Shown: positions 60 to 16,268 of the stretch, piece by piece
How the letters are laid out: each line of letters opens with the position of its first letter
Position numbering within the stretch: the first letter of the stretch is position 1
Notes under the pieces: model-generated
Told to the model about the DNA's origin: nothing
Databases searched by the model: none
The model's input: the letters and a program-made list of their open reading frames with translations, nothing else
Virus record (IMG/VR): IMGVR_UViG_2706794664_000009
Origin: a virus
Lineage: Duplodnaviria > Heunggongvirae > Uroviricota > Caudoviricetes
DNA: 25,730 bases
Reading direction: 5' to 3' (one strand)
Made by a program: the position numbers and the translations under genes

Positions 60-524
60 TTAGATTCGTCTCGCCTGCCAGAAATTTTTCTGCCAATAGA
101 CATTATCAAGTGAGGAACGCATCACTCCCTTGCTGGTAGAGGCGTGGATAAATTGGTTGTTGGTATCGTAAATACCTACATGCAAACCATTTTGTCCGGA
201 ACCCGTTTTGAAAAAGACCAGGTCACCAGGCAGCAACTCGTCTTTATCAATTTGCGTGCCGATAGAGGCTTGTTCTTTGGTTTCTCGGGGCAGCTGCAAA
301 TCGAAACGATCGCGCATCGTTACAACCACAAATCCCGAACAGTCCACACCGCGCCGCGTCATGCCACCATAACGATACGGCGTGCCATGCCAGCTTTGTA
401 GCTGGTCGTTCAAACCGGCAATAACGGTAATCGAATCAGAAAGTCTGGCATTTGGCGGCGGTGCTTTATGGTGGCTACACCCGGCCAGAAACAGTGCTGT
501 GATCAAAATAAGGCAGAAACGCAT
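60..524 (-). CDS. nlpC: NlpC/P60-family lipoprotein NlpC
   Basis: 154-aa ORF with a lipoprotein signal (LFLAGCS lipobox) and an NlpC/P60 Cys-His core (DCSGF ... GLHVGIY). Sequence and its position after btuD match E. coli NlpC as I recall it. Confidence 0.9.
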   Translation of the reverse strand: MRFCLILITALFLAGCSHHKAPPPNARLSDSITVIAGLNDQLQSWHGTPYRYGGMTRRGVDCSGFVVVTMRDRFDLQLPRETKEQASIGTQIDKDELLPGDLVFFKTGSGQNGLHVGIYDTNNQFIHASTSKGVMRSSLDNVYWQKNFWQARRI

Positions 525-601
525 TCCGTACGGTTCCTCTGTTTTTTATTCTTGCATTAATTTAGCGTCGTAATTACCCGATTTTCAAGATACTAATGAA
601 A

Positions 602-1351
602 TCAGATGGTCGAAATCAGCATTCTGTGACCTTCGATATCCAGACGGCGAAAATTCATCCCATAGGCCTGCGCCAGATTTGGCGGCGTGAGCACCTCTTC
701 TCTGCGTCCACTGGCCAGCATTTTTCCACCTTTTAGCAACCACGCCCGATGCGCATGACGCAATGTGTGGTTGAGATCGTGACTGCTCATCACAATCGCC
801 AGTCCTTGCTGACACAGAGCGCTCAGAATTTTGTCTAACGCACTTTGTTGCGCAACATCAAGACTGTTCATCGGCTCATCAAGAAGCAGCAATTGGCCTG
901 CGGGATTGGCTTGTGGTGTGATTTGCAGCACCACCGCAGCAAGACGTACGCGTTGCCATTCACCGCCGGAAAGTTGATTGGTGCTACGTCCGAGTTTGTC
1001 ATCAAGAGCCAGCGCCCCTGCGACATCATTCAGTAGTTCGGTACGCGTTTTATCGTGCTGATGCAGTGTCAGATAGTGCCAGACCGGCATTGCAAACGGC
1101 GGCGTCTGCTGTTGTGAAAGATAGGCGCGATGCAGCGCGAGTTTTGTTGCGGACCATGCTTCCAGTGGTTGCCCCGCGAACTGAATACTTCCCTTACCGC
1201 TGGTCATTCCGGCCATTCGTGCCAGTAAGGTACTCTTACCCGCGCCATTCGGCCCCACCAGGTGCAGGATCTCCCCAGCCCGAACCTCGCCAGAAAGTGG
1301 CCCCAGGCGGGTAGATTCCGCAACATCCTGTAACTGCATCACAATAGACAT
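602..1351 (-). CDS. btuD: vitamin B12 ABC importer ATP-binding subunit BtuD
   Basis: 249-aa ORF with Walker A (GPNGAGKST), ABC signature (LSGGEWQR) and Walker B (LLLLDEP). Its start overlaps the btuE stop by 1 nt, as in the E. coli btuCED operon. Confidence 0.95.
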
Positions 1352-1902
1352 TATTTTGCCAACGCCAGTTTAATGCTTTCCATCACAATGGGGTCTTCCG
1401 GCGTCATATCCGGGGAAAAACGCTGGATGACCAATCCGTCCCTGCCAACTAAAAATTTCTCAAAATTCCATAAAATATCATCAGGGTACAGCGGTGCACG
1501 ACCTTTGCTGACCATACGGGCATAGAATCCGCTCTCTTCCGGCGCGACTGCGGTCGGCGCTGCGGCAATCAATTTTTGATACAGCGGATGGCGTCCTTCG
1601 CCGTTAACTTCAATCTTACTGAACATCGGGAACGTCACCCCCCATGTGGTGGTACAGTAAGTTTTAATCTCTTCATCGCTGCCCGGTTCTTGTTCCAGAA
1701 ACTGGTTGCACGGGAATCCCAGCACCACAAAACCTCGATCGGCCCAGGCTTTCTGAATATTCTCCAACTGCTCATATTGCGGCGTTAAGCCACACTTTGA
1801 GGCGACATTGACAATCAACAGCACATTACCGGCGTACTTCTCCAGCGTGGTCACTTCACCGTCGATATCTTTCACTACGGTCGTCAGAATGGAATCTTGC
1901 AT
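1351..1902 (-). CDS. btuE: glutathione peroxidase-family protein BtuE
   Basis: 183-aa ORF with a GPx-like active-site region ([19 protein letters not shown]), located between btuC and btuD. Confidence 0.9.
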
Positions 1903-1964
1903 CGTTTCTCCTGGGTGTGGTCAGTAAAAATCTTAGCTTTTAATCATAGACCGTCTTTTTGCGG

Positions 1965-2945
1965 CTAACGTCCTGCTTTTAACAATAACCAGATAAACAC
2001 CGGCGCACCCAACGTTGCGGTGACCACGCCAATAGGCAGCTCTGCGGCAGCTAATGCCAGGCGCGCTACAATATCGGCCAGCAGCACTGCGCTCGCCCCT
2101 GCCAGCGCGCAGCCGGGAAGTAATACGCGATGATCGGTTAAACCACACAACCGAAGAATATGTGGGATCACCAGACCAATAAAGCCGATAGCACCCGCCA
2201 GCGCCACACTGACGCCAACCATCCAGCCGGTCGCTGCCACCAGCACATTGCGCCAGAACCACAGGGGTAAACCCAGTTGCCGCGCCGAGATCTCGCCAAG
2301 TGCTAACATATTCATCGGCCTGGACTGACAACAGATCCACAACAACACGGGGATCAATGCCAGCATCAGCCAGCTTTGCCGCCAGTCTACGCCGCCAAAA
2401 CCGCCCATCATCCAGTACATCAGCTGACGTAAATCAACAGAGGTGGAAAAGTAGATAGCCCACGTCATTAGTGCGCTACAGATAATCCCTAATGCAACGC
2501 CAGCCAGCAATAACCGACTGGTCGAAAGATGACGACGGGCGAAACGTAAGAGTATTAAAGTGATGATAAGCGCGCCAGCAATCGCACACAGCCCTAGCGC
2601 CCAGTTGGGGAGTTGCCCTTGCCCAAGCAATACCGCGGCGATAAGCCCCACGCCTGCGCCGTTAGAGACGCCAAGTAGTCCAGGTTCTGCCAGAGGATTT
2701 TCAAACAACGCCTGCATTACAGCGCCGGATATAGCCAGCGCCGCACCAACCAGCAATACAGCCAGCGTACGTGGCAGGCGAATTTGCCAGACGAACAGTT
2801 CGCCACGAGGAGTAAACCAGTCACCTGGCGAAATCCATTGTTCACCGGCGCAAAGGCTTAAGAGAAGCGCCAGCAGCATCAAAACTGACAGGCATAATAA
2901 CCAGCGAATATTTTGTCGCTGTTGTTGGCGGGCAAGTGTCAGCAT
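1965..2945 (-). CDS. btuC: vitamin B12 ABC importer permease BtuC
   Basis: 326-aa highly hydrophobic multi-TM ORF of the FecCD/BtuC permease type. Length and sequence match E. coli BtuC as recalled. Confidence 0.95.
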
Positions 2946-3004
2946 GGTATCCGTTCTGCTGAAGTGTCATGGCGTTGATTTTACGGTGACTCTTCGACAG
3001 TGAA

Positions 3005-3029
3005 AAGAAAAAAGGCCGCAGAGCGGCCA
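3005..3029 (-). terminator. Candidate rho-independent terminator (minus strand)
   Basis: GC hairpin GGCCGC-agag-CGGCC (3015-3029) preceded on the plus strand by aaaagaaaaaa, which is a T-run after the hairpin on the minus strand. It sits just downstream of the minus-strand ORF ending at 3138 and upstream of btuC. Confidence 0.45.
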
Positions 3030-3137
3030 TAAACACAAACAAAAATCAATAAGTTAGGTAATTATCAAAGACTTACAGACACACAAAAACACAGCCAACC
3101 ACAACAAATAACAGAGATGTGGTCAATTTGTGGATCA

Positions 3138-3692
3138 TCAGCCAACAAATTTAGCAACAAATACAGCAACCGCCGCTGTGAAAATGGTTGTGCACACTGG
3201 CACAATAATGCCACTCCAACGCCACTTCGTATTATCATCAACCTTGTCAAACCGCCGATTCATCTCATCCATAATCTTGTCAAAGCGTTTATCCATCGCT
3301 TCGGTAAGCTCACCCTTCAGGCTGTTAATGTCTGATTTGAGCTGCTCTTTCAGGTTAGCTGTATCAGATTTAAGCTCACCTTTCAGATTCGCAATATCGC
3401 ATTCAAGATCACCTTTCAGATGTGCTATGTCTGCTTTGAGTTCACCTTTCACCTCACCAACATCGGCTTTAGTTGAGAGGTTTGTAGTGCGTTCAGCAAG
3501 CGTCGCAAGGTCGTTTCTTGTTAGCGATAAATCACCTTCGAGCCGCTCAATTCGCCTTTCAAGTTTATCTGACATTCCGCCTCCACTACTGCCGCCATCG
3601 CCACCATGATAAAGCACATCACGCTCAGAATGCGACACACTACCTGCTGAATTACCGAAAAGATTTCTTGCTACATTACCCATTATCACCAT
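3138..3692 (-). CDS. Coiled-coil protein with tandem 11-residue repeats and a C-terminal hydrophobic anchor; function unknown
   Basis: ORF with repeats LKGELKADIAH / LKGDLECDIAN / LKGELKSDTAN / LKEQLKSDINS and a C-terminal TM-like segment (IIVPVCTTIFTAAVAVFVAKFVG). An alternative start at 3575 (MSDKLERR) has a GGAGG 4 nt upstream. The region is AT-rich relative to the phage structural genes. Confidence 0.55.
   Translation of the reverse strand: MVIMGNVARNLFGNSAGSVSHSERDVLYHGGDGGSSGGGMSDKLERRIERLEGDLSLTRNDLATLAERTTNLSTKADVGEVKGELKADIAHLKGDLECDIANLKGELKSDTANLKEQLKSDINSLKGELTEAMDKRFDKIMDEMNRRFDKVDDNTKWRWSGIIVPVCTTIFTAAVAVFVAKFVG
3300..3455. repeat. Five tandem 33-bp direct repeats inside the coiled-coil ORF
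   Basis: The motif agctcacc(t/c)ttcag recurs with ends at 3320, 3353, 3386, 3419 and 3452, an exact 33-bp period that encodes the 11-residue protein repeats. Confidence 0.7.
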
Positions 3693-4005
3693 CCTGCGCT
3701 TTGTCTTTCTCCAACCACTTCAGCACCGCAGACGTACGATAAAGGCTCAGGTAACCACAATTCAGGCAATGCAGCGTGTAATAAGTTTTGCGCATATCAG
3801 GTATGCTCTTAACATCACCCAAAAAAGCATAAGATACATAATGCTTTATGTTCTCTTTAATTAACTCACTCTGTTCCTCCAGGGGTAGATTGTTAAAATT
3901 TTCTGGTTTCTTATTTTTATCCCAGCAAAGATCCATACTTTCTGGAACAGATAATCGCGACGATCCACATGAAGGGCAGACACTGGAGACCCCCTTCTCA
4001 GACAA
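3676..4005 (-). CDS. Small zinc-ribbon protein (CPSCG ... CLNCG); function unknown
   Basis: 109-aa ORF with two CxxC pairs. The called start is TTG at 4005 and the frame is open into the masked run, so the true 5' end may lie inside 4022-4252. Its stop overlaps the long form of the downstream coiled-coil ORF. Confidence 0.45.
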   Translation of the reverse strand: MSEKGVSSVCPSCGSSRLSVPESMDLCWDKNKKPENFNNLPLEEQSELIKENIKHYVSYAFLGDVKSIPDMRKTYYTLHCLNCGYLSLYRTSAVLKWLEKDKAQDGDNG

Positions 4006-4252
4006 GAAACGGAAGAAGATTNNNNNNNNNNNNNNNNNNNNNNNNNNNNNNNNNNNNNNNNNNNNNNNNNNNNNNNNNNNNNNNNNNNNNNNNNNNNNNN
4101 NNNNNNNNNNNNNNNNNNNNNNNNNNNNNNNNNNNNNNNNNNNNNNNNNNNNNNNNNNNNNNNNNNNNNNNNNNNNNNNNNNNNNNNNNNNNNNNNNNNN
4201 NNNNNNNNNNNNNNNNNNNNNNNNNNNNNNNNNNNNNNNNNNNNNNNNNNNN

Positions 4253-5138
4253 GCCCCAGAATTTTCTGGAGCGTCAGAATATTGCCGCCGTTCATCATGA
4301 AATGACTGGCGAAGGTGTGGCGCAGCGCATGAACAGCCTGGCCGTCAGGAACATCAGGTGCGACCGTTTTGATGACATCGCGAACCAATGAATAATCCAG
4401 CGTCGGAAACACCAGTTTCCCGCCCCGTTTTTTGATCTTTTCAAACAGGCTTTCAGAAATAGGAACGGTACGGTTTTTGCTGTTCTTCGTTTTTGAAAAA
4501 GTGATTCGACAATGAAGAACACGGCGCTGCTCCAGTGCCGCTACCTCGCCCCATCGCGCCCCGGTCGACAGAAGGATTTCGACGGCCAGCCGTTCATCGG
4601 GATTTTCAGCCAGTGCATCCAGCAACTGAACACATTCAGACTTACTCAGATATCCCATTTCACGCTCGTTAACCTTCATTCCTTTAAGGCCTTGAACGGG
4701 GTTATCGTTAAGAAAATGGCCGGATGAGATGAGTGCGGTAAACATCGCGCTTAACGCCCCAATCTCTCGATTTATGGTGCTGGGCTGTATCCCCTGCTCT
4801 ATCCTGGACACACGTAGCTCGGTGAGCATCGTTGTATTAAGTTTATGCACGCACGGGTCATCCATTGCCTCACTCAAGCGCAGCAATTTAAGGCGCGTGT
4901 TATGCCCTGACTTCATTAGCTGGCCGTGGTATTTCCACCACAAGTCAATAAGCACTGACAGCGGACGGCGATCAATGGAGTTTCCTTTCCACTCATTGTT
5001 ATGCTGTTGCGCCAGCACCCACCGCTCATATAAAACTGCATCCGATTTCGTTTTAAATTTTTTGCGAATGCGTTTGCCTTTACGCCCCTCAGGACGCATG
5101 TCAAGAAGATACCCTCCCGGAATTGATTTTATGCTCAT
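4253..5138 (-). CDS. int: P2-type tyrosine integrase (3' end inside masked run 4022-4252)
   Basis: From the ATG at 5138 (MSIKSIPGG...) the protein aligns along its length with recalled P2 Int, including GARWGE, HALRHTFA and the C-terminal LQKILG that runs into the gap. About 40 residues, including the catalytic Tyr, should lie in the masked part. Confidence 0.9.
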
Positions 5139-5187
5139 TCGTGAAGCCCCAGCGTTACAAGACCACCATGCCCCCAGCGTTCCATGA

Positions 5188-5499
5188 TTAGCCGGGCTGT
5201 GTGCCAGTCTTGCGGGATTTTTGAGAAGACGATGTGTTTTCTGGCCCATCAGGGGAGAGAGAAGGACTGATCTGCCCAGCAGCCTCATTTGTTTCGTTAC
5301 TCATCAACCACGTAGTGTATTTTTTAAATTCCGGGTGCATTGTGATTTTCAGTAAAACCTCCGTTCCCACACCTCGAATACCAGTCTCGTATTGCTTAAC
5401 CGTACCAACCGCAATACCTATTGAATCCGCGAACTTTGCCTGACTAAGCCCCTCAGATTCTCGAATTGCTTTTAGCTTCTTTGATATCTCTATTGACAT
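5188..5499 (-). CDS. C: P2 C-type immunity repressor
   Basis: 103-aa ORF from the ATG at 5499 (MSIEISKK...), about 100 aa like P2 C, with a C-terminal pattern close to recalled P2 C (PEFKKYTTWLMSNE ... GQISP ... SQKSRKTG). It lies immediately upstream of int and divergent from the early operon. Confidence 0.8.
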   Translation of the reverse strand: MSIEISKKLKAIRESEGLSQAKFADSIGIAVGTVKQYETGIRGVGTEVLLKITMHPEFKKYTTWLMSNETNEAAGQISPSLSPDGPENTSSSQKSRKTGTQPG

Positions 5500-5594
5500 G
5501 GTGTGCACCTGAATACTATATTGGTTATCAGTTGAGTACCACTTGACGCTACAAAGAGCCACAAATAGCACCAGATTGAATAGGTTATCACACC
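5500..5594. promoter_or_regulatory. Divergent C / early-operon control region with candidate operator repeats
   Basis: Intergenic region between the divergent C and cox-like starts. GGTTATCA occurs as a direct repeat at 5523-5530 and 5583-5590, each preceded by TGAATA. A TTGACG -35-like hexamer is at 5543-5548. No promoter was mapped precisely. Confidence 0.35.
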
Positions 5595-5873
5595 ATGGCA
5601 AAAGTCCTTAACACATACGAACAAGCGGATTTTGAGCGTTTGGCGGCGTTCTACCCATACCGTAATGAACATGGGCTACCGGTACTTGAAGAAAGCCTAG
5701 AGGATTATGCGAAACGCACAAATCAAAGCATTCTCGCTGTAAGAAGGCAGGCTGATAGATCGGTAATTCCCGTTACTCAAGAAGGAAGAAACACAAAACG
5801 CAAAGTAAATCTCTTCGCAATTTTCCTGAAAACCATCAGAAACGCAGAGAAATACGTGCAGATGACAAAATAA
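5595..5873 (+). CDS. Cox-position small regulator (putative excisionase / transcription factor)
   Basis: 92-aa first gene of the rightward early operon, divergent from C, with the size and position of P2 Cox. The call is positional; I did not recognise the sequence. Confidence 0.45.
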   Translation: MAKVLNTYEQADFERLAAFYPYRNEHGLPVLEESLEDYAKRTNQSILAVRRQADRSVIPVTQEGRNTKRKVNLFAIFLKTIRNAEKYVQMTK

Positions 5874-5887
5874 CGAGGTGTCATTTT

Positions 5888-6226
5888 ATGCTGAAGCAAC
5901 GCCGTAATTTTTGTACCGGAACAGAACGCCACGCTAACCGTTTCACTACCAGTGCATCACGCAGCAACATCCGCTACAGCCTGAGTGATACACACGCAAC
6001 GCCGGATGGCTACCCAGTAAAACAAATCGGCGAGCACGCCTGGCTGATTGAGAAAGCTGGAATCGTGATCCACAAATGCCCACGCAATCCGTTTACCGGA
6101 AACCGCATTTTTGCACTGAGCTGTGGCGACAATCAGTTCGGGCAGGATTTCACATTATACGAAGCACTTCGCACGGTTGATCGTCTGCTTCGCGGGCAAA
6201 GTTTTATTAAACAGGCTGATTTATAA
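5888..6226 (+). CDS. Hypothetical early-operon protein
   Basis: 112-aa ORF with a GAGGTG Shine-Dalgarno 7 nt upstream, co-oriented and tightly packed with the early genes. Confidence 0.5.
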   Translation: MLKQRRNFCTGTERHANRFTTSASRSNIRYSLSDTHATPDGYPVKQIGEHAWLIEKAGIVIHKCPRNPFTGNRIFALSCGDNQFGQDFTLYEALRTVDRLLRGQSFIKQADL

Positions 6227-6236
6227 CAGGTGCTTT

Positions 6237-6524
6237 ATGACCAAAGACAATGCACAAGGTGTATTTATCCGTTTTATTGATTTTCGCGGTGAACTGTTAT
6301 TACGTGCATCCGCTATTGACGGAGTGACTCCGGCGGGTAAAAACGGAGCCGACGAAGCCACTTACGTTTATCTGAACGGCACGCGACTGCTTGTGGAACT
6401 TCCGTACCAGACCGTACGAGAAATCATCAGCGAAGATGAAAAGGCACGCCAGGTTAATGGCGATGAACCCTATATCGAAATTATTTGTATGGATTCAGAA
6501 GCTGAAATACAGAAAGCAGATTAA
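6237..6524 (+). CDS. Hypothetical early-operon protein
   Basis: 95-aa ORF from an internal ATG (MTKDNAQGV...) chosen to avoid a 100-nt overlap with the upstream gene; AGGTG lies upstream. Confidence 0.45.
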   Translation: MTKDNAQGVFIRFIDFRGELLLRASAIDGVTPAGKNGADEATYVYLNGTRLLVELPYQTVREIISEDEKARQVNGDEPYIEIICMDSEAEIQKAD

Positions 6525-6535
6525 AGGGCGTTGTG

Positions 6536-6778
6536 ATGGGCAAAGAATATAAAACTCTCATTAACAAAGCACTTGAGCGTTTTTATTTTCGCTTAAGTGC
6601 ATCAGGCGCTCATGCTGAACGTGCGGCCCGTGACTCATTGACCAGAGCAATCCGAAGTCTGTATGACGTGGCTTTTTACGCTGATGATCTGGATGCACTT
6701 AACGAACTTTCCGAGCTGATCTGTGCCGCAGAATGCGGGGAACATATTGAACCGTATAAGCTGGGAAATATCGCATGA
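6536..6778 (+). CDS. Hypothetical early-operon protein
   Basis: 80-aa ORF; ATG at 6536 (GTG at 6533 is an alternative) with AAGGG upstream. Confidence 0.45.
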   Translation: MGKEYKTLINKALERFYFRLSASGAHAERAARDSLTRAIRSLYDVAFYADDLDALNELSELICAAECGEHIEPYKLGNIA

Positions 6779-6888
6779 GTATATTTATTTCATGGCTTGT
6801 TCTGATTATTTCGGTGGTCTGCGCCATTGGGATTATGCGAATTATTAATTCAGTAAAAAAGATTGAACGCTTTTTCACTGAAGAATAA
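6775..6888 (+). CDS. Small hydrophobic protein (37 aa, single predicted TM)
   Basis: Not in the ORF track. ATG at 6775 overlaps the upstream stop (ATGA) and encodes MSIFISWLVLIISVVCAIGIMRIINSVKKIERFFTEE. Short ORFs are error-prone. Confidence 0.3.
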   Translation: MSIFISWLVLIISVVCAIGIMRIINSVKKIERFFTEE

Positions 6889-6974
6889 CCGCGCAAATAA
6901 GACCCCAGGTTAAATAAGAAAATGTGAAAACAATCCGCATTCGCGGAGGTATTCGCACACGCCAAGGAGGCGTA

Positions 6975-7178
6975 ATGGCAATTAAGCATTTTCCTGTCGT
7001 TCGTTTCACCTCCAGAGGACGTGAATACGAAGTTGACGAACGCCTGATTACCACAATCGACAAACACCGTTCAGAAAAGGATGCACATCATATCTATCTC
7101 ACTGACGGCACTTACTTCTGCGCCACCAACGTGGTGCAGGTGAATCTTATCAGACAGGTACAGGAGTCACGCAGATGA
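6975..7178 (+). CDS. Hypothetical early-operon protein
   Basis: 67-aa ORF from ATG 6975 with a strong AAGGAGG 4 nt upstream; the track's longer form from 6924 lacks a comparable RBS. Confidence 0.45.
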   Translation: MAIKHFPVVRFTSRGREYEVDERLITTIDKHRSEKDAHHIYLTDGTYFCATNVVQVNLIRQVQESRR

Positions 7179-7420
7179 CCATTCTGGACTACATCGCTGC
7201 CAATCCGGGTTGTAGCAGTGGAGAAATCGCCGCAGCACTGAATACACCAACCACAACCATTAATGCGGAGCTACGCCGTCTCTGGCGCAGCGGTTTAGTC
7301 ACAAGAAAAGAGCGCAAAACAGGCGGTCGCTTTTCTTATCAGGTAAACCTGATGCCGTTTGGGTGTAGCAACCCACTAACCCAGATGTTCAACCAGCTAC
7401 TGAGGGAAATCAGAGCATGA
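7175..7420 (+). CDS. Small putative winged-helix DNA-binding protein
   Basis: 81-aa ORF whose start overlaps the upstream stop (ATGA), with AGGAG upstream. The N-terminal pattern (ILDYIAANPGCSSGEIAAAL ... LRRLWRSGLV) looks like a wHTH; this is an inference. Confidence 0.45.
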   Translation: MTILDYIAANPGCSSGEIAAALNTPTTTINAELRRLWRSGLVTRKERKTGGRFSYQVNLMPFGCSNPLTQMFNQLLREIRA

Positions 7421-7561
7421 GCACCTCCAACTGCCGGAAACCACGTCGGGCTTCAGCAGCTCATCCGGCAGCAAAACAAACTCCATTAATTCCTGTTCCG
7501 GGCCTTTCCTGCACCTTGCGGCGGGAGGCCTTCGCACATCTGTAACAAGAGGATTGCCGCA

Positions 7562-7927
7562 ATGATTCTCGCCAACGACTTTCTTGAATACCTGCTCAAC
7601 ACAGAGCGTGATCTTGCCGCTCGCGTGCGTGATCGTTATGACATGTACCTGAAATCCCTGCCTGTACCGCAGCTCGCTGACGGAAAGATTGTTATTGATG
7701 GTCGCTACATGATTGACAGCCACGAGGGAAATTACAGGCTTTACCGCATTGAAGGTGGCACCCCGTCCGTTATTGGCATTTACCAGCGCCCATCCTCTGC
7801 AATCGTCGATGTGATTGCCGACAGCATCCGCATCACACATCGCCATGCCGACACAGAAGACACCGTGCTGGAAATTCAGCGGCTGGCTACAGTCTGCCGC
7901 GACACCCTGAATGGCATGACGAAGTAA
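7562..7927 (+). CDS. Hypothetical early-operon protein
   Basis: 121-aa ORF with AAGAGGA 8 nt upstream, ending 7 nt before the gene A start. Confidence 0.5.
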   Translation: MILANDFLEYLLNTERDLAARVRDRYDMYLKSLPVPQLADGKIVIDGRYMIDSHEGNYRLYRIEGGTPSVIGIYQRPSSAIVDVIADSIRITHRHADTEDTVLEIQRLATVCRDTLNGMTK

Positions 7928-7933
7928 ATCACT

Positions 7934-10761
7934 ATGACGGCAGAGTACATCAGGGACTGGCAACAACCGCGCCANNNNNNNNNNNNNNNNNNNNNNNNNN
8001 NNNNNNNNNNNNNNNNNNNNNNNNNNNNNNNNNNNNNNNNNNNNNNNNNNNNNNNNNNNNNNNNNNNNNNNNNNNNNNNNNNNNNNNNNNNNNNNNNNNN
8101 NNNNNNNNNNNNNNNNNNNNNNNNNNNNNNNNNNNNNNNNNNNNNNNNNNNNNNNNNNNNNNNNNNNNNNNNNNNNNNNNNNNNNNNNNNNNNNNNNNNN
8201 NNNNNNNNNNNNNNNNNNNNNNNNTGCGCCTGCTGCCGTCCTATCTGCGCGATCCGCTTATTCGCCACCTCTCCTTCCTGCGCAAAAAACAGGAAGCCGA
8301 TCGCCGGAAAGGCAAAAAGAGCTGGCAGGCGGAACGCTATGCACGCGGAACCCTGCGCAAAATATTCGAACGTCTGGATCGCACTGACGGACACTGGCTG
8401 ACACCGGGTTATCGCTCCCTTGCCGGACGTGAACGCCTGGACGATTTGCTTTACCTGCCGCAACTCAACAAACACCAGATACAGACGCTGGCCACCATGA
8501 CGGCGGCGATGTTCAGCAGCACCTTCGAAAAACTCTGCGATGGTTTTGGCGCGACTGATGGCGAGCTGACCATGGATGTAACGCTGAAGGCGTATCAGAT
8601 GCTGGCCCGCATGGCGTTACACTTACACGCCATGCCTCCGCATTATGACGCACTGACAACAGACAAAGACCGGAGGCACGAACCGGACACAGAACTGCTG
8701 CCGGGCGCAATCCTTCGCCTGACCTGTGCGGAATGGTGGAAACGCAAACTGTGGCTGTTACGTTGCGAGTGGAGAGAAGAACAACTTCGCGCCGCCTGTC
8801 TGGTTTCCAGAAAAACATCGCCCTATCTGAGCCAGGACGCGTTAAGCGAGTTTCGCGCACAGCGCGAGAAAACACGCGATTTCCTGAAAAGTTTCATGCT
8901 GGAAAATGAAGACGGGTTCACGATTGATCTCGAGACGGTGTATTACGCGGGAGTAAGTAACCCGGTTCACCGTAAGGCAGAAATGATGGCCACCATGAAG
9001 GGGCTGGAACTTCTGGCCGAAGCCCGTGGCGACAAAGCGGTGTTTCTGACTGTCACCTGCCCGTCAAAATACCACGCCACAACGGAGAACGGTCATCCGA
9101 ATCCCAAATGGAACGGGGCCACAATGCGCGACTCCAGCGATTACCTGGTTAACACGTTTTTTGCGACGGTCCGCAAAAAACTGAACCGCGACGGCCTGCG
9201 CTGGTATGGCATCCGCACGGCGGAGCCTCACCATGACGGCACCGTGCACTGGCATATGATGGTCTTTGCTCATCCGGAAGAAATCGACACCATTGTGTCC
9301 CACACCCGCGATATTGCCATTCAGGAAGATCGTCACGAGCTGGGCGATGACATAACTCCGCGCTTTAAGGCGGAGTATGTAGACGGCTCAAAAGGCACGC
9401 CAACCAGCTACATCGCCACCTACATCGGGAAAAACCTGGACAGCCGCGCCGTGGATGGCATCGACCCGAAAACGGGCAAGCCACGCGTTGACCACGAAAC
9501 CGGAAAATCAATGGCCGAGAGCGTGGAACGCGCCATCGGCTGGGCGCGCCTTCACCGGGTCCGCCAGTTCCAGTTCTTTGGCATCCCCTCCCGCCAGGTA
9601 TGGCGTGAACTGCGCCGCCTTGCCAGCCAGATGGCACGCAACCCGGAAAGCCCGCAACGGCTGAAGGATGACGCAATGGATGCGGTTCTTGCCGCCGCTG
9701 ATGCCGGATGTTTTGCCACCTACATAGAGAAACAGGGCGGCGTACTTGTTCCACGCAAAGACTACCTGATTCGCACCGCCTACGACCTCGCCGATGAGCT
9801 GAACGATTACGGCGAACAGAGCGTACAGATTTACGGGATCTGGTCACCACTCATCGGGGAATCCTCCCGTGTGTGCACGCATCCGGATAACTGGAAGCTG
9901 GTAAGACGCAAACCGGAAGCGGAAGACAGCGCCCGCGAAAATGGTTTTGACCTTCAGGGCGGCCCTGCCGCCCCTTGGACTCGTGGCAATAACTGTCCCC
10001 GTGTACAGGAAACGGACAACAACGGGACAGAACAGCCGGAAGAACGGCCAGCACCGTGGCCGCAGCTCCCTGACGGCGTTGATGTGGATGAATGGATGCG
10101 CTCACTGAAACGGCACGAACGCCGGGCGCTGATGCGTTCGCTTCGTGACAAACAGGCAAAAAACAGCAGTGATGAAATGCAGAGCTGGACACAGAGCCGC
10201 AAACAGCAGCGGCCTTTGCCTGATAACCACGAATTACTCGCTAAAGAATGGCGGGAGTCTGCTGAATCTCTCGGCCTGCATATCGGTGAACAACAGATGC
10301 AGCACCTGTTACGGGGCGGCAGTCTGTACGTTGACGGCAGCATCATTGCACCGCAGGGATTTGAAATTGTACGCAAACCGGATACCCGCCCGGACAGCCG
10401 AATCACGCAGCTCTGGCAGCGCCTGAGCCGTAATCATGGCGTAAGCAGCACGGAGATCCGCCATAACCCGGTCGCCAGCTATCTGACACAGCTGGGGGCA
10501 TCAGACCCTGAAGCCGCCGCACGCCTGGCATCCACACTTCAGCAGGACCAGAACACCATGAAAACACCCGTTACCGTGCTTTCTGACATGCTGCGCGCCA
10601 TCCGCGACGCAGAGCACGCACAGAGAATCAGTGAAACCACTGAACGCGCCCGCCGCAAAGCAGACCTGCTGCGGGGTGGCCTGACCAGTGGAAACAAAAA
10701 ACAGACAGAAACGGGACTCACGAATCCCGTAAATGAGCAAAAAACGCGCAGCGATATATGA
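7934..10761 (+). CDS. A: P2 gpA-type rolling-circle replication initiator (interrupted by masked run 7975-8224)
   Basis: Long frame 8227-10761 carries an HUH motif (VHWHMMVFAH) and a catalytic Tyr pair (SYIATYIGKN, YxxxY as in phiX174 gpA and P2 A). Likely start is ATG 7934; the frame on either side of the gap differs by 1, read as gap-length imprecision. Confidence 0.85.
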
Positions 10762-10837: not shown

Positions 10838-11814
10838 ATGAAAATTTGTATCGACGACGGCTCCACCAACATCAAGCTGGCATGGACTGAGAACGGCGAA
10901 CGCCGCAACGCCATCAGCCCGAACAGCTTCAAGTCGGAATGGTCTGCGCCGTTCGGTGGCATGCAGCCCGCGAACTACATNNNNNNNNNNNNNNNNNNNN
11001 NNNNNNNNNNNNNNNNNNNNNNNNNNNNNNNNNNNNNNNNNNNNNNNNNNNNNNNNNNNNNNNNNNNNNNNNNNNNNNNNNNNNNNNNNNNNNNNNNNNN
11101 NNNNNNNNNNNNNNNNNNNNNNNNNNNNNNNNNNNNNNNNNNNNNNNNNNNNNNNNNNNNNNNNNNNNNNNNNNNNNNNNNNNNNNNNNNNNNNNNNNNN
11201 NNNNNNNNNNNNNNNNNNNNNNNNNNNNNNNNNNNNNNNNNNNNNACCAGAACGGCGAAGCATTCACTATCCGTAACGTGCGGGTTATGCCTGAATCCAT
11301 TCCGGCTGGCTTTAAGGCACTGGCTGACATGAGTCCGTTTGAATCCCTGCTGATTGTGGATTTGGGCGGAACCACGCTGGATGTGGCAAAGGTTCAGGGG
11401 CAACTGGCAGGTATCAGCCAGGTGTTTTGCGATCCACACGTAGGCGTTTCTCTGATGGCCGATGCCGTACTGTCGGTGATGGCCACTAACGGTATGCGCA
11501 CCAGTCACCACATCGCCAATACCATTATCGAACATCGCCATGATGAAGCCTGGCTGCGCCAGCACATCCACAATGACGCGCATTACGCCAGCCTGATGGC
11601 GGTTATTCGTGAAAAGGAAGAAACACTGAAACAACGCGTGATCCGCGCGCTGGCGGGTTTTTCGGGTTACGGGCGGGTGATGGTTGTCGGTGGAGGGGCG
11701 GAGATTGTGGCACCCGCTATCCGCGAAGCCTGCGGAGTTAATGCGACTTTCATCGCGGACGGGGTGCCACAGTTTGCTCTGGTTAATGGGCTGTACGCAA
11801 TGGACAAGGAGTAA
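10838..11814 (+). CDS. parM: ParM/StbA-like actin-type ATPase (interrupted by masked run 10981-11245)
   Basis: N-terminus MKICIDDGSTNIKLAW ... ISPNSFKSEW resembles plasmid R1 ParM as recalled. Downstream blocks also match (DLGGTTLD, GISQVFCDPHVGVSL, GFSGYGRVMVVGGGAEI, LVNGLYAM). Total span is about 325 codons versus about 320 aa for ParM. Confidence 0.8.
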
Positions 11815-11818
11815 ACCA

Positions 11819-12130
11819 ATGACGACACCAACCAGACGGATAAGTTTCTATCTGAAGCCTGCGGCCGTCAAGAACGAAAGCGAAGCATGCGCCTGGCTGG
11901 GCAGCCTTACACCAGAAGCCCGCAAAAGCGGCCAACGCGTGGCTTTTCTGGCCGGGCTGGCACTTCTGAAAATGAATCCAGCAGAGGCTTACCGACTGGC
12001 TGCATGGGCTGACGATGAGGCGTTATCGGTGACACAAACCAGGACAGAACGCCCCGTGCCACAGCCAGTACCAACCGCACAGATAACCAGTCAGATAGCA
12101 GGGAATATCCGGGCATTATTTCCTGAATGA
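11819..12130 (+). CDS. parR: ParR-like small DNA-binding protein (putative partition or operator adaptor)
   Basis: 103-aa ORF starting 5 nt after the parM-like stop, with AAGGAG upstream. Local resemblance to recalled R1 ParR (RISFYLKP; QRVAFLAGLALLKMNP versus NRAALTAGLALYRQDP; NIRALFPE versus NILRSLFPKE). Weaker evidence than for parM. Confidence 0.55.
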   Translation: MTTPTRRISFYLKPAAVKNESEACAWLGSLTPEARKSGQRVAFLAGLALLKMNPAEAYRLAAWADDEALSVTQTRTERPVPQPVPTAQITSQIAGNIRALFPE

Positions 12131-12190
12131 CGAATTTGACGGCTTTTAATTTTATCGGGGTGCACTGTCGCCCCGCACGAGGAAAACACG

Positions 12191-12715
12191 ATGAAAAAAT
12201 ACGAATACATGCTAATGAAAGAAGCACTGCGGGCTGGTCTGGCTCCCTGTCCTGTATCCGTAGAAGCTGTTGTTGGGAACACGATTTTCCGAACGCTGCG
12301 AAATCGCGTATCCGTGAAGATGGTTCACCAACCACCCAAATCTACCAGCATGATCTATCTGCCGCTGCCCGAGGCTATCAAACTTATGCGTTCGCTGAAA
12401 TTTGCGATTTGGATGCAGACACAAATCAACAAAGCGGTGCAAAACACCTTCGTTAAGAGACTAATACCGGAGCTTGCTGCCAGATGTGCAAAATGTACCA
12501 GACCCGCACTTCAATTTGATCTGTCATTGATTCAACAAGCTACGGAGGCAGAACTGTACCGCCTGTCACCTATCCGTGATGCTCACACGGAAGCATCAGA
12601 AATGTTCCGGCTCATGTTTCAATTTAATTTTGCCGTTCGACGCACACGCGTTCAGGTCAATCGCATGATGCAGGAGCAGGAAGAGTTAACACAGTACAAA
12701 GGGGGCAGCCAGTGA
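12191..12715 (+). CDS. Hypothetical 174-aa protein; first gene of an accessory operon in the tin/old-equivalent locus
   Basis: GAGGA Shine-Dalgarno 8 nt upstream of the ATG. I recognise no motif or family. The region is AT-richer by eye than the phage structural genes. Confidence 0.55.
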   Translation: MKKYEYMLMKEALRAGLAPCPVSVEAVVGNTIFRTLRNRVSVKMVHQPPKSTSMIYLPLPEAIKLMRSLKFAIWMQTQINKAVQNTFVKRLIPELAARCAKCTRPALQFDLSLIQQATEAELYRLSPIRDAHTEASEMFRLMFQFNFAVRRTRVQVNRMMQEQEELTQYKGGSQ

Positions 12716-12951
12716 GTAATTCAGCACGACTACAGCTTGGTTTTTCACCGCTATCAAAAACCATCGTATTGGCAAAAATGCGTGACTTAGGAGACGGAAC
12801 AAAACGCCGCGTAGGAAATGATCGCGGTCGCGATGTAACCAACGAGGCCGCTCAACTCGTTTGGCATCTAGTCATGGCAGAAGGCGGTGAAATTAATTGG
12901 GAGCTGGATGATGGTTCTCGTATGATTTTGAGGGCCGAGAAGAGTAAATAG
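12712..12951 (+). CDS. Hypothetical 79-aa protein, translationally coupled to the upstream gene
   Basis: GTG start overlaps the upstream TGA (GTGA) and a G-rich stretch precedes it. No recognisable motif. Confidence 0.4.
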   Translation: MSNSARLQLGFSPLSKTIVLAKMRDLGDGTKRRVGNDRGRDVTNEAAQLVWHLVMAEGGEINWELDDGSRMILRAEKSK

Positions 12952-12965
12952 CTCAAGGGGGATTA

Positions 12966-13151
12966 ATGCTAAATGATGATGAAGAAGAGCTGCTTATGCA
13001 GGAATGGTCGCTCGGTGATTATGATAATGGTGAAAATGGGTGCCCGCATTGTGGCCGTTATCGTTTATGTATCTGCCAGAATGGAAAACACAGATGTGAA
13101 AAGTGCAATTGGTCTCCGGAACTTAATGACTACGTGCCGATCGAGTGGTAG
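12966..13151 (+). CDS. Small zinc-finger protein (61 aa)
   Basis: Acidic N-terminus, then CPHCG ... CICQNGKHRCEKC, giving six Cys and one His. Starts 14 nt after the upstream gene and is the last gene before the cos region. Confidence 0.45.
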   Translation: MLNDDEEELLMQEWSLGDYDNGENGCPHCGRYRLCICQNGKHRCEKCNWSPELNDYVPIEW

Positions 13152-13642
13152 AGGTAAGTCACACTAGGTGTTTTTTAGTTGATTTTATAAATGCACAATA
13201 GTGCACAAATTTGCACAATTTTTTTGAACGACTTTTTGCCCTTCCGGCCCGCGTGGCGGCTGGATCCGTCAAGGATCCGTGCATGCACAAAAAAACGCGT
13301 TTTTTCTGCGCGCAGGTGACGGGGGAACAGCCCGCGTTTCAGGGGGTAAATAGCATTCCCTGAACGATGTCGCAGAGATACAACAGAATGGCTGTATTTC
13401 TCACGCTGAGCGTGAAAAAGACGTGAGGGCTTTTGATTTGATGGGGTGAAAGGTAAGGCCGTCAAAATCGCACTGAGACGGCGAGAATATGCAGTCAACG
13501 AGGTGGGATTGCGTAAGAGTCTGACTGTCGATGATGGCAATCAGCAGGAAAGCGTCGTGAAATTATCTGACTGATACAGGAGCTGGAGAGTCGGGGCATA
13601 AATTTTTTATGCCCCGGCGAAGCAGCAGACAAGCGAAGCGCG
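13152..13642. other. Non-coding region in the P2 cos position, between the accessory locus and gene Q
   Basis: About 490 bp without a convincing ORF. Contains three TGCACAA(T) repeats (13190-13220), a perfect palindrome AAAAAAACGCGTTTTTT (about 13290-13307), a GGATCCGT direct repeat, GC-rich segments loosely like the P2/186 cos core, and a strong hairpin near 13590-13612. Exact cos ends were not identified. Confidence 0.4.
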
Positions 13643-14689: not shown

Positions 14690-16268
14690 CAGAACTCCAT
14701 AACCGTGAAACGCTCGTTTTCTCCTTCGCCGCCAATCGGTTCGTTAATGACAGCAAGCATGGTTGCCCACGCAAGGTCGCCGTGGCTGATCCCCCTCGCG
14801 CGGTCCGTTTCGTAAGTGATAAAACCGCCCGGTGTTTTCACCTTACGCACGGCGTTAAAGGCCGCAACCAGCTCGCGTTCGGCGCGATCGTATTCCCACC
14901 GCCCGGCACGCATTATTTGCAGCATTTTCAGTACCAGCGACCGTTTTGATGACAGCGTGAAGGTGTAAGGGATGGCGGCGGGAAAAAACCGTTTCACTAT
15001 CTGATAGACGGCATCCCCGTGCCCGCCCGTCGCATCAATGCCGATGTGTTCCACGTTGTAGCGATACGTGAACTCTTCAATAACTCTGGCCTGCTCTTCA
15101 AATTCCAGCCCCTGAACGCGTCGCGTCTCCACCGTTCTGAAACGACCACCAGGAACAGCCGGAGGAACCACCACGGACACAGCGCCGCTGTCGCCGTTAC
15201 CACTGCTGCCGTTTGCGTCATACCCAATCCATACCGGACGATTCCCCATCGGGCGGGGGGCAAAGGGTTTCCAGTCTTTCCAGTCGTCGTATCCGTCAAC
15301 ACCGCAGCCAATCAGGATATTCAGGTTAAATGCCGATTCCCCTTCGCGGACAAACTCACACATATAGAGATTGCGGAACTCGTCTTCGGTGTTTTCATCA
15401 CGAATTTCATCAATATCGGTGTGTTTCCAGCCGTGATTAACCACATCTTCCAGCGTGACAATTTGCCGCCACGTCCGGTCAGGGCAGATAAGCCCGTTAT
15501 GCAGCGTTTTCCAGTCCACAGAAAAACGCTGGCGTTTATGCGCGGCCTTTTTCTCGTTCCAGCGGTCGCCGTTCCAGTAGGCGTATGCCTCGTGCGTTTC
15601 GGTGGATGGCGTGGAGAAGCAGGTGCGCCGCAGTCCGCTGAGGGTTGCCATAGCGCCAGCCACCTTGCGCAGTTCAGCAAAGCGACTGACCCAGAAAAAT
15701 TCATCAAAATAAAAATTGCCCGTGTAAGATTGCGCCGTCGCAGCAGAAGTGCCGAGAAAATGCATCTCTGCGCCGTTGGAGAGGATGATTTTATCGCCCC
15801 CTTTCAGCTCCACATCGACTTCAGCCGCGGCCTTCTGAATAATGCTTTTAAACTGGAACGCCTGACGACGCGACGCAGACAAAAAAATCTGGTTACGCTG
15901 GTAAGGTTGTGCCACATCGTCACGCAGCGCCATCAGCAGTGCTTCCTGTGCAAAATACCAGGTCGCCCCAATCTGTCGGGATTTCAGGATCATCCTGTTA
16001 CGTATCCCGGCTTCCCTGCAAAGCGTCAGGGAGTCAAACCAGCCCCGCTGATGCCACTCCAGCCTGCTGATGATTTTTTCCCGCAGTGCGGCAATCTGTT
16101 CCGGCGTGAAATGATTTTTGAGTTTTTTCGCCCGGCCTTTCTTTCCTGTGGCCGTCGCATCCGGCTGGCCATCATGCAGTTTTTTAAGCTGCCGGGTCAG
16201 CAGGTCTATTTCCTTAAAGTCACCACCTGTTTTATTCTGTTTTTCAGTAAGCTGGATGAGGCGCGCAT
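14689..16268 (-). CDS. P: Terminase large (ATPase) subunit (P2 gpP homolog); 5' end inside masked run 16269-16537
   Basis: Long minus-strand frame directly upstream of Q. Expected length of about 590 aa places the start inside the gap. Terminase-like internal sequence and P2 synteny. Confidence 0.9.

Follow-up and report, generated by a model that had tools for sequence, protein, structure and literature searches.

The DNA analysed here (the window) is a stretch of 25,730 nucleotides from the IMG/VR virus record IMGVR_UViG_2706794664_000009, and it holds one junction of a P2-like prophage together with two small genes located between that junction and the integrase gene. The left 2.9 kb corresponds to the nlpC-btuD-btuE-btuC block of Escherichia coli, with all genes on the minus strand. 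The last chromosomal gene before the junction is btuC (1965-2945, minus strand; start codon at 2945), as placed by the list of open reading frames (ORFs) and by the annotation of a 99.5% identical reference; btuE (1351-1902), btuD (602-1351) and nlpC (60-524) are located downstream of it. Past the btuC start there are a terminator-like hairpin, two AT-rich ORFs and an integrase gene (int), all found where an earlier note, made from the letters of the window alone, had listed them. ORF1 (3138-3683, minus strand; 3138-3683/3692 in the ORF list) encodes 181 amino acids (aa), and ORF2 is visible as its C-terminal 114 codons and stop codon (3676-4021, minus strand). The visible part of int covers 4253-5138 (minus strand), its last ~25 codons being masked; the protein has 325 aa in the reference. 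The assignment of this integrase to the P2 type was borne out by the Pfam domains Int_N and Phage_integrase and by 48.6% identity to P2 Int over the full length (324 aa), with 48.9% to Wphi Int. The best full-length match to the window, used as the reference throughout, was the prophage of E. coli O26 RM8426, with 99.5% identity over 61-4021, 99.9% over 4253-7974 and ~94% in the tail genes.

To locate the junction, positions 2800-4021 of the window were compared by megablast with 5426 complete E. coli genomes, each of which gave a match. In all but 23 genomes the matches ended at query position 229 (window 3028, the last base of the hairpin) or, exceptionally, at 339, and identity was confined to window positions up to 3028 in at least 5396 genomes. 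This supports the chromosome-prophage junction suggested previously. The statement that ihfA stands next to btuC in E. coli was also correct, since the two genes were found ~100 bp apart in 5120 of the 5426 genomes. In strain AR434, where the site is empty, about 100 bp separate the btuC start from the ihfA stop codon, and the hairpin GGCCGCAGAGCGGCC is located in this spacer between A- and T-runs. The same hairpin is found at 3014-3028 of the window, and a terminator scan showed it to be followed by TTTTTTCTTT on the minus strand.

The three-way comparison of attB, attL and attR revealed a common core of 25 bp, AAAGAAAAAAGGCCGCAGAGCGGCC, at 3004-3028. In a base-by-base comparison, attL was identical to attB up to window 3028, and attR was identical to attB from the equivalent of 3004 on, and the crossover between chromosome and phage is within the core. 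A direct repeat of 20-30 bp at both prophage ends, which the earlier note had proposed to look for, is provided by this core. Its copies are located at 3004-3028 of the window and, for attR, at 15424-15448 of the RM8426 right-end locus (L003), and the AR434 empty-site locus contains it once. In RM8426 the two copies are 35,098 bp apart, which corresponds to a prophage of 35.1 kb. The core was matched exactly at every occupied or empty site fetched.

In RM8426, ihfA is intact immediately past attR and is followed by pheT and pheS. Thus, the proposal that foreign DNA had taken the position of ihfA did not hold in the sense of a loss: judging from the RM8426 sequence, the gene is displaced by ~35 kb, and the btuC-proximal DNA is unchanged. 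Terminator scans identified the stem-loop (3028-3014) with its T-tract as an intrinsic terminator on the minus strand (3004-3028), and the same hairpin follows ihfA both in the empty site and at attR, so that integration regenerates the ihfA terminator. These data largely show that the phage entered the 100-bp btuC-ihfA spacer by recombination, through a P2-type tyrosine integrase, between its attP and a 25-bp chromosomal core that coincides with the ihfA terminator. Both junctions end up with a terminator-like structure, because the copy brought by the phage includes the stem-loop and most of its T-tract; the hairpin at attL would terminate the transcript of int and its cargo and shield btuC. 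The btuC-ihfA junction was split in 306 of the 5426 complete genomes (~5.6%). Salmonella enterica uses the same site and carries the same cassette family; in Salmonella loci L012/L013 and L019, the equivalent btuC-side site has a core variant with GCAATGC in the loop.

The phage-derived arm of attL, i.e., the int-proximal arm of attP, is located at 3029-3140 and is kept whatever cargo follows. When ten occupied sites were aligned, Salmonella included, the 112 bp after the core were conserved through GTGGATCAT, and the sequences diverged from ~3141. Two putative sites for integration host factor (IHF), recognised by their match to the consensus, are found in this arm on the plus strand: AATCAATAAGTTA (3044-3056) and TATCAAAGACTTA (3063-3075). 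The consensus WATCAANNNNTTR has only these two matches in the 25.7-kb window, where 0.81 would be expected, and a third match, AATCAATCAGTTA, is present in the attR arm of RM8426. A putative pair of Int arm-type sites, GTGGTCAatttGTGGATC (3119-3136, plus strand), consists of GTGG-type repeats 11 bp apart. Although the pattern for these repeats was defined after the sites had been seen and is not an independent prediction, it gave one match in the window and one in the 25 kb of L003 (15369-15386, in the attR arm), with 0 expected; its uniqueness and its recurrence on the other arm lend support to the sites.

This arrangement can be compared with that of P2, where the equivalent repeats GTGTCCACAtaGTGTCCACA begin 13 nt past the int stop codon and a second pair is located on the other arm. 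Both phages share the order ogr, attP, int, C, the Int family, and paired arm-type repeats 11 bp apart on both arms. The IHF-dependent attP type of P2 would be shared as well, the IHF and arm-type sites of the prophage in the window being seen at the level of sequence only. Given the arm, the IHF sites and the paired repeats, the attP appears to be intact and P2-like. The two differ in that the P2 arm-type sites follow int after 13 nt, whereas a two-gene cassette of ~1.0 kb intervenes here, and in the core and the chromosomal target. The comparison with the P2 attP core, also proposed in the earlier note, showed that the 25-bp core has no match in the P2 int-ogr region, int-attP included. Given this result and the Int identity of only ~49%, the Int encoded in the window is a distinct specificity class within the P2 Int family.

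The attachment site itself is already published. The P2-like prophage PP_SE11-4 of E. coli SE11 (35.8 kb) was described as located 'between btuC and ihfA' with a 25-nt duplication (Oshima et al. 2008, PMC2608844, Table 2), and its published left coordinate, 1,928,706, is equivalent to position 3004 of the window, at a distance of 59 nt upstream from the start of btuC. PP_SE11-4 resembles the prophage in the window in its attachment site, the 25-nt duplication, its P2-like nature and its Int family: the SE11 Int is the same as that of strain MS8345 (WP_012565105.1) and differs by one residue from that of RM8426. It differs in carrying another cassette (cassette B, see below), with proteins only 24-37% identical to the pair in the window. 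Therefore, the earlier remark that the insertion site is not a classical P2 locus stands with respect to P2 itself, whose int-attP region lacks the core and whose Int is only ~49% identical, but not in the sense of an unrecorded site, as it is on record for SE11 and occupied in ~5.6% of genomes.

The earlier note had offered two placements for attL, the first of them near 3030 with the two ORFs as cargo. This placement is supported by the 25-bp repeat at both ends and by the conserved arm with its Int and IHF sites, and the two ORFs lie outside attL; they form a cassette bounded by the int stop codon on one side and by the arm-type and IHF sites of the attP arm on the other. In our opinion, it is highly probable that 3004-3140 is the attL of a complete P2-family prophage at the published site and that the ORFs are a swappable cassette between int and att. 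Several points weigh against this interpretation. The window stops before its own right end, and attR was taken from a 94-99.9% identical prophage of another strain, RM8426. The attP junction pattern had 0 exact matches in IMG/VR and the contigs of the JGI metagenomes, the query for the attR arm coming from a single strain. Also, a search of INPHARED with the attL-cargo-int DNA found no sequenced phage isolate with this int or cargo, and the sole match (81%) covered a segment of an integrase gene from Klebsiella. Absence from these collections carries little weight.

In related prophages with >98% identical Int, the same slot holds one of at least four different cassettes, and the Int proteins across the cassette types differ only in the last few residues. 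Cassette A, that of the window, contains genes for a 166-aa Zn-ribbon protein (ORF2) and a DUF1640-like protein (ORF1) and was found in 23 genomes (RM8426, O103:H2 12009). Cassette B (86 genomes; MS8345, SE11) encodes a 120-aa Zn-ribbon protein and a 145-aa coiled-coil protein with a transmembrane (TM) segment. Cassette E (14 genomes; STEC388, 2013C-3033, and unannotated in 2D and DEC5B) encodes a 132-aa Zn-ribbon protein and a DUF1640-like protein. Cassette C consists of a single unrelated gene for 131 aa and was present in 158 genomes (HCP5S3_I2, NCCP 14541). Together, the four types cover ~281 of roughly 300 occupied sites, with the Zn-ribbon/tail-anchor pair in roughly 120 genomes. Gene sets thus alternate between the same conserved flanks, as in a hotspot. 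Cassettes A, B and E are homologous pairs, in which the Zn-ribbon proteins are 24-31% and their partners 30-37% identical. Such low identity next to a near-constant Int implies that the module diverges or is exchanged far faster than int. The two cargo ORFs had GC contents of 45% and 39%, below those of the chromosome (52%) and of the other prophage DNA (54%).

In 16 genomes the DUF1640 gene was found without the 166-aa ORF2, which raised the possibility that the two genes are independent. This possibility was rejected, since those genomes carry the homologous 132-aa Zn-ribbon gene, which is sometimes unannotated. In DEC5B and 2D this gene (L007, 3498-3975; L009, 2948-3425) was left unannotated with its frame open at the 3' end, a probable RefSeq error. 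Salmonella carries a Zn-ribbon gene 58% identical to that of E. coli and, in strain s1, one that is 97% identical; the latter implies recent exchange between the genera.

The location of cargo between attL and int had been called unusual. Indeed, it is atypical for P2-like phages, but a survey of thousands of P2-like prophages has counted the interval between int and att among their defence hotspots, as a minor one, atypical but real, with 3% of the systems known from P2-like phages (NAR 2026, PMC13586616). The hotspots of P2 described earlier are the gpA-gpQ interval (tin/old) and the Z/fun locus in the tail genes (Rousset 2022, PMC9122126). The slot in the window is similar to the int-att hotspot in having variable genes between conserved flanks and passengers mobilised with the phage. 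It is different in that its cassettes match no known or candidate defence family of PADLOC-DB 2.0.

The product of ORF1 starts with an N-terminal peptide, which is joined by a Gly-rich linker (GGDGGSSGGG) to a coiled coil carrying an ATK-type beta-layer motif (STKADV at residue 70), and has a C-terminal TM segment (residues 159-177 of 181, based on hydropathy). The NCBI annotation, 'DUF1640 domain-containing', covers no more than the final 145 aa (3138-3575). However, the frame upstream of this start is open and conserved in every variant, together with the linker in which it ends (GGDGGSSGGG-M) and an overlap of 8 nt between the ORF1 start (ATG or GTG across variants) and the ORF2 stop; in the window this overlap reads ATGGGTAA, with the start at 3683. 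The overlap recurs in Salmonella, Providencia and another E. coli lineage, where the gene caller gives a length of 181 aa. Given the conserved upstream frame and the overlap, we took ORF1 as 181 aa (3138-3683), and the 'DUF1640' start codon of NCBI is probably 36 codons too far downstream (window 3575-3683). The score of ORF1 against the Pfam family CCDC90-like was 24.1 bits, below the cutoff of 33.5, although NCBI still names it DUF1640/CCDC90.

In DUF1640 proteins, the beta-layer motif is [aliphatic]-A-T-K-[polar]-[D/E] in a coiled-coil stalk (Hartmann et al. 2016, PMC4786415). The ORF1 family is similar to the DUF1640/CCDC90-like family (PF07798) in the stalk motif (STKADV/ATKSDV) and the single C-terminal TM segment, found in all partners examined. 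It is distinguished by the Pfam score below the threshold, the additional N-terminal peptide with the Gly-rich linker and the obligatory Zn-ribbon partner gene. A 33-bp tandem repeat of 3.2 copies (3347-3451; TRF) encodes 11-residue coiled-coil repeats of ORF1. The ORF1 homologues have lengths of 192, 181, 170, 159 and 148 aa, i.e., they differ in steps of 11 aa (145/134/123/112 in the short annotations), which suggests that the length of the stalk varies with the number of repeats.

ORF2 encodes a 166-aa Zn-ribbon protein (CxxC...CxxC), the first 52 codons being hidden by the masked run 4022-4252. The ATG of ORF2 is located 2 nt after the int stop codon in the reference, and a GGAGGA Shine-Dalgarno sequence is found inside the last int codons; in the other variants, the distance from the int stop to the Zn-ribbon start varies from +10 to -23 nt. 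The AlphaFold2 (AF2) model of ORF2 had a pLDDT of 83.6. The two genes form a translationally coupled pair, in which ORF2 encodes a small Zn-ribbon protein of the cytoplasm and ORF1 a coiled-coil protein held in the membrane by a tail anchor. In E. coli, Salmonella, Providencia and metagenomic relatives, the gene overlap is kept along with the Gly linker, the ATK(A/S)D motif and the C-terminal TM segment.

The Zn-ribbon family is small: of 1.84 billion representatives at 50% identity, 91 clusters belong to it, and in GTDB it occurs in two species representatives only. Each relative inspected had an overlapping partner next to it with the same architecture of linker, motif and tail anchor, and each was located either near ogr, attP and int of a P2/HP1-like element or at the point where such an element joins the chromosome. 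The PHROGs of the cassette proteins, 4293 (ORF2) and 9415, are both of 'unknown function'.

In P2, C and int form one lysogenic operon. In the prophage of the window, a scan of the minus strand from the C repressor gene to the attL hairpin found no promoter-like site and only weak terminator-like matches. Since ORF2 starts 2 nt after int, with its Shine-Dalgarno sequence in int codons and no intervening promoter, lysogens probably transcribe C, int and the pair together, and this transcript would end at the borrowed ihfA terminator.

We suggest that the pair is probably a lysogenic-conversion module at the inner membrane, with superinfection exclusion, abortive infection or a toxin-antitoxin-like function. 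This proposal is based on the AT-rich passenger nature of the genes (39-45% versus 54% GC), the known hotspot, and the combination of a membrane-anchored protein with a small partner. We infer an exclusion, abortive-infection or toxin-antitoxin-like role from the position, architecture and variability of the pair. More specifically, and tentatively, the pair could be an unrecognised, fast-evolving two-gene anti-phage system of the P2-like attP flank, expressed from the C-int operon, with a stalk tuned in 11-residue steps by the 33-bp repeat and an allelic series (A/B/E) swapped between the int 3' end and the arm-type sites; we regard this as possible rather than established.

A number of results weigh against a defence role. 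The cassette proteins matched no Pfam or NCBIfam family above threshold, and a structure search with the AF2 model of ORF2 found no structural neighbour. The search of PADLOC-DB 2.0 gave only coiled-coil noise (best LmuB, E=3.8e-5, 21 bits), with nothing for the Zn-ribbon proteins or the 131-aa gene of cassette C, so that no recognised anti-phage system was found in the cassettes. Only a small share (the 3% given above) of the known defence systems in P2-like phages map to the int-att interval (PMC13586616). A literature search for work tying DUF1640/CCDC90 to phage defence returned nothing relevant.

It is also conceivable, though rather unlikely, that the cassette is chiefly a toxin-antitoxin or addiction module, in which the tail-anchored protein is the toxin and the Zn-ribbon protein its antidote, and which stabilises the prophage rather than excluding phages. 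The two small genes with their stop/start overlap and the putative antidote first, as well as the membrane effector with a single TM segment, are in agreement with such a module, and the same prophage family has a Hok/Gef gene at its other end (RM8426). However, the pair is unlike any known toxin or antitoxin family (Pfam, NCBIfam and PADLOC), and only the layout of two small overlapping genes is shared with type II modules. With 107-192 aa, most of it coiled coil, the partner is long and does not resemble the known small membrane toxins, and in 158 genomes the slot is occupied by the unrelated single gene. Since the boundary between addiction and abortive infection is blurred, this explanation overlaps with that of an anti-phage system.

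The explanation that the cassette serves the cycle of the phage itself (integration or excision, timing of lysis, DNA entry) rather than host conversion is improbable. Its tight packing in one operon with int, its constant location in the ogr-attP-int region of P2-like elements and a weak PHROG holin match of the C-terminus (E=0.004) could be understood in this way. But most prophages with the same Int lack the pair (158 have the unrelated gene), which makes it dispensable, a complete P2 lysis cassette is present elsewhere in the prophage, and, with Cox being the directionality factor of P2, a cox-like gene is present at 5595-5873. That the two ORFs are decaying or non-functional filler is very improbable: poor annotation, with the Zn-ribbon gene overlooked in 2D and DEC5B, and the narrow taxonomic range of the family might give this impression, but both frames are intact across variants that are only 24-60% identical, which also retain the invariant Cys pairs, the motifs and the translational coupling, the AF2 model has a high confidence, and the family is spread over the 91 clusters. 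Finally, the second placement of the earlier note, with attL inside the masked run 4022-4252 and the ORFs as a separate small insertion between chromosome and prophage, was understandable given that P2 has no genes between int and attP and that this run is unreadable in the window, but is practically negligible, as ORF2 runs through the masked region in the reference from its start 2 nt past the int stop with no att-like sequence there, the direct repeat is located at 3004-3028 and at attR instead, the arm-type pair and the IHF sites (3044-3136) are on the chromosome side of the ORFs, and every cassette variant is bounded by the int stop and the conserved arm.

The remaining part of the window is in agreement with a P2-family prophage. 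A C-type immunity repressor gene with an HTH_3 domain (5188-5499, minus strand; Pfam and annotation) is located directly upstream of int on the same strand. A strong promoter-like site, TTGACA-18-TATATT (5493-5522, plus strand), faces the early genes, among them the cox-like gene (5595-5873), and, by analogy with P2, would be the early promoter. In RM8426, btuC is followed by the 'DUF1640' gene, a hypothetical protein gene, the integrase, the HTH repressor, early genes, the replication endonuclease and ParM/ParR, and then by portal, terminase, capsid, lysis, baseplate, tail, gpD, a PIN-domain protein, ogr and Hok/Gef. Based on the window ORFs and the reference, the P2 gene order (C, cox-like, gpA, portal, terminase, capsid, lysis, tail, gpD, ogr) was recovered together with the P2 core genes (gpA, Q-P-O-N-M-L, lysis, baseplate/tail, D, ogr), and the prophage can be assigned by its sequence to the P2 family (Peduoviridae). 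The integrase was found in 299 of the 5426 E. coli genomes, nearly always with at least 95% identity, and its carriers include O103:H2 12009, O55:H7 CB9615, O104:H4 and O111 strains.

As read from the 99.5-99.9% identical reference, the masked run 4022-4252 covers the C-terminal end of Int along with the first third of the ORF2 protein. The lengths of the masked runs differed from the reference at every run checked (4022-4252, 231 versus 249; 7975-8224, 250 versus 245; 10981-11245, 265 versus 248). Therefore, coordinates cannot be transferred exactly across the masks, and the placement of gene ends by masked-run length was rejected.

Truncated copies of int (query 17-795, 17-674 and 17-492), fused directly to DUF4761 or partitioning genes, were observed in many genomes (O111 and others). 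They are decayed copies of this prophage, located at the same site, from which the repressor-cox region has been deleted. A ParM/ParR pair of the StbA/StbB type is located in the gpA-gpQ hotspot (10838-12130, plus strand; ParM_N 3.5e-69, Plasmid_stab_B 2e-23). It is unexpected in an integrating P2-like phage and may indicate a plasmid-like state or another role. The segment from ParR to the portal gene (12131-13190) had no match in the otherwise near-identical RM8426 prophage, and the ORFs at 12191-12715 (174 aa) and 13175-13540 had no Pfam match; this segment is a second variable slot. At the right end of the RM8426 prophage, outside the window, a gene for a 500-aa PIN-domain protein is located between gpD and ogr (L003, 12822-14324) and a Hok/Gef toxin gene between ogr and attR (15019-15159). 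With these genes, passengers are found on both flanks of attP.

The junction itself is of little weight, since this P2-like attachment site has been documented before, is fairly common in E. coli and is used in Salmonella too. Integration here would be neutral by design, because the phage supplies a copy of the ihfA terminator. The exact boundary (3004-3028) guards against calling btuC phage cargo or the two ORFs chromosomal. A 2026 survey of P2-like viruses counts the BtuC permease among phage 'auxiliary metabolic genes' (PMC13100340); with the att site 59 bp from btuC, this listing is plausibly an overshoot of the prophage boundary and not true cargo. As the position of the cargo is already on record as a hotspot, what remains of interest is the family of two-gene cassettes and the other genes that occupy this slot, a clean and sharply delimited place in which to look for candidate genes of lysogenic conversion or defence.

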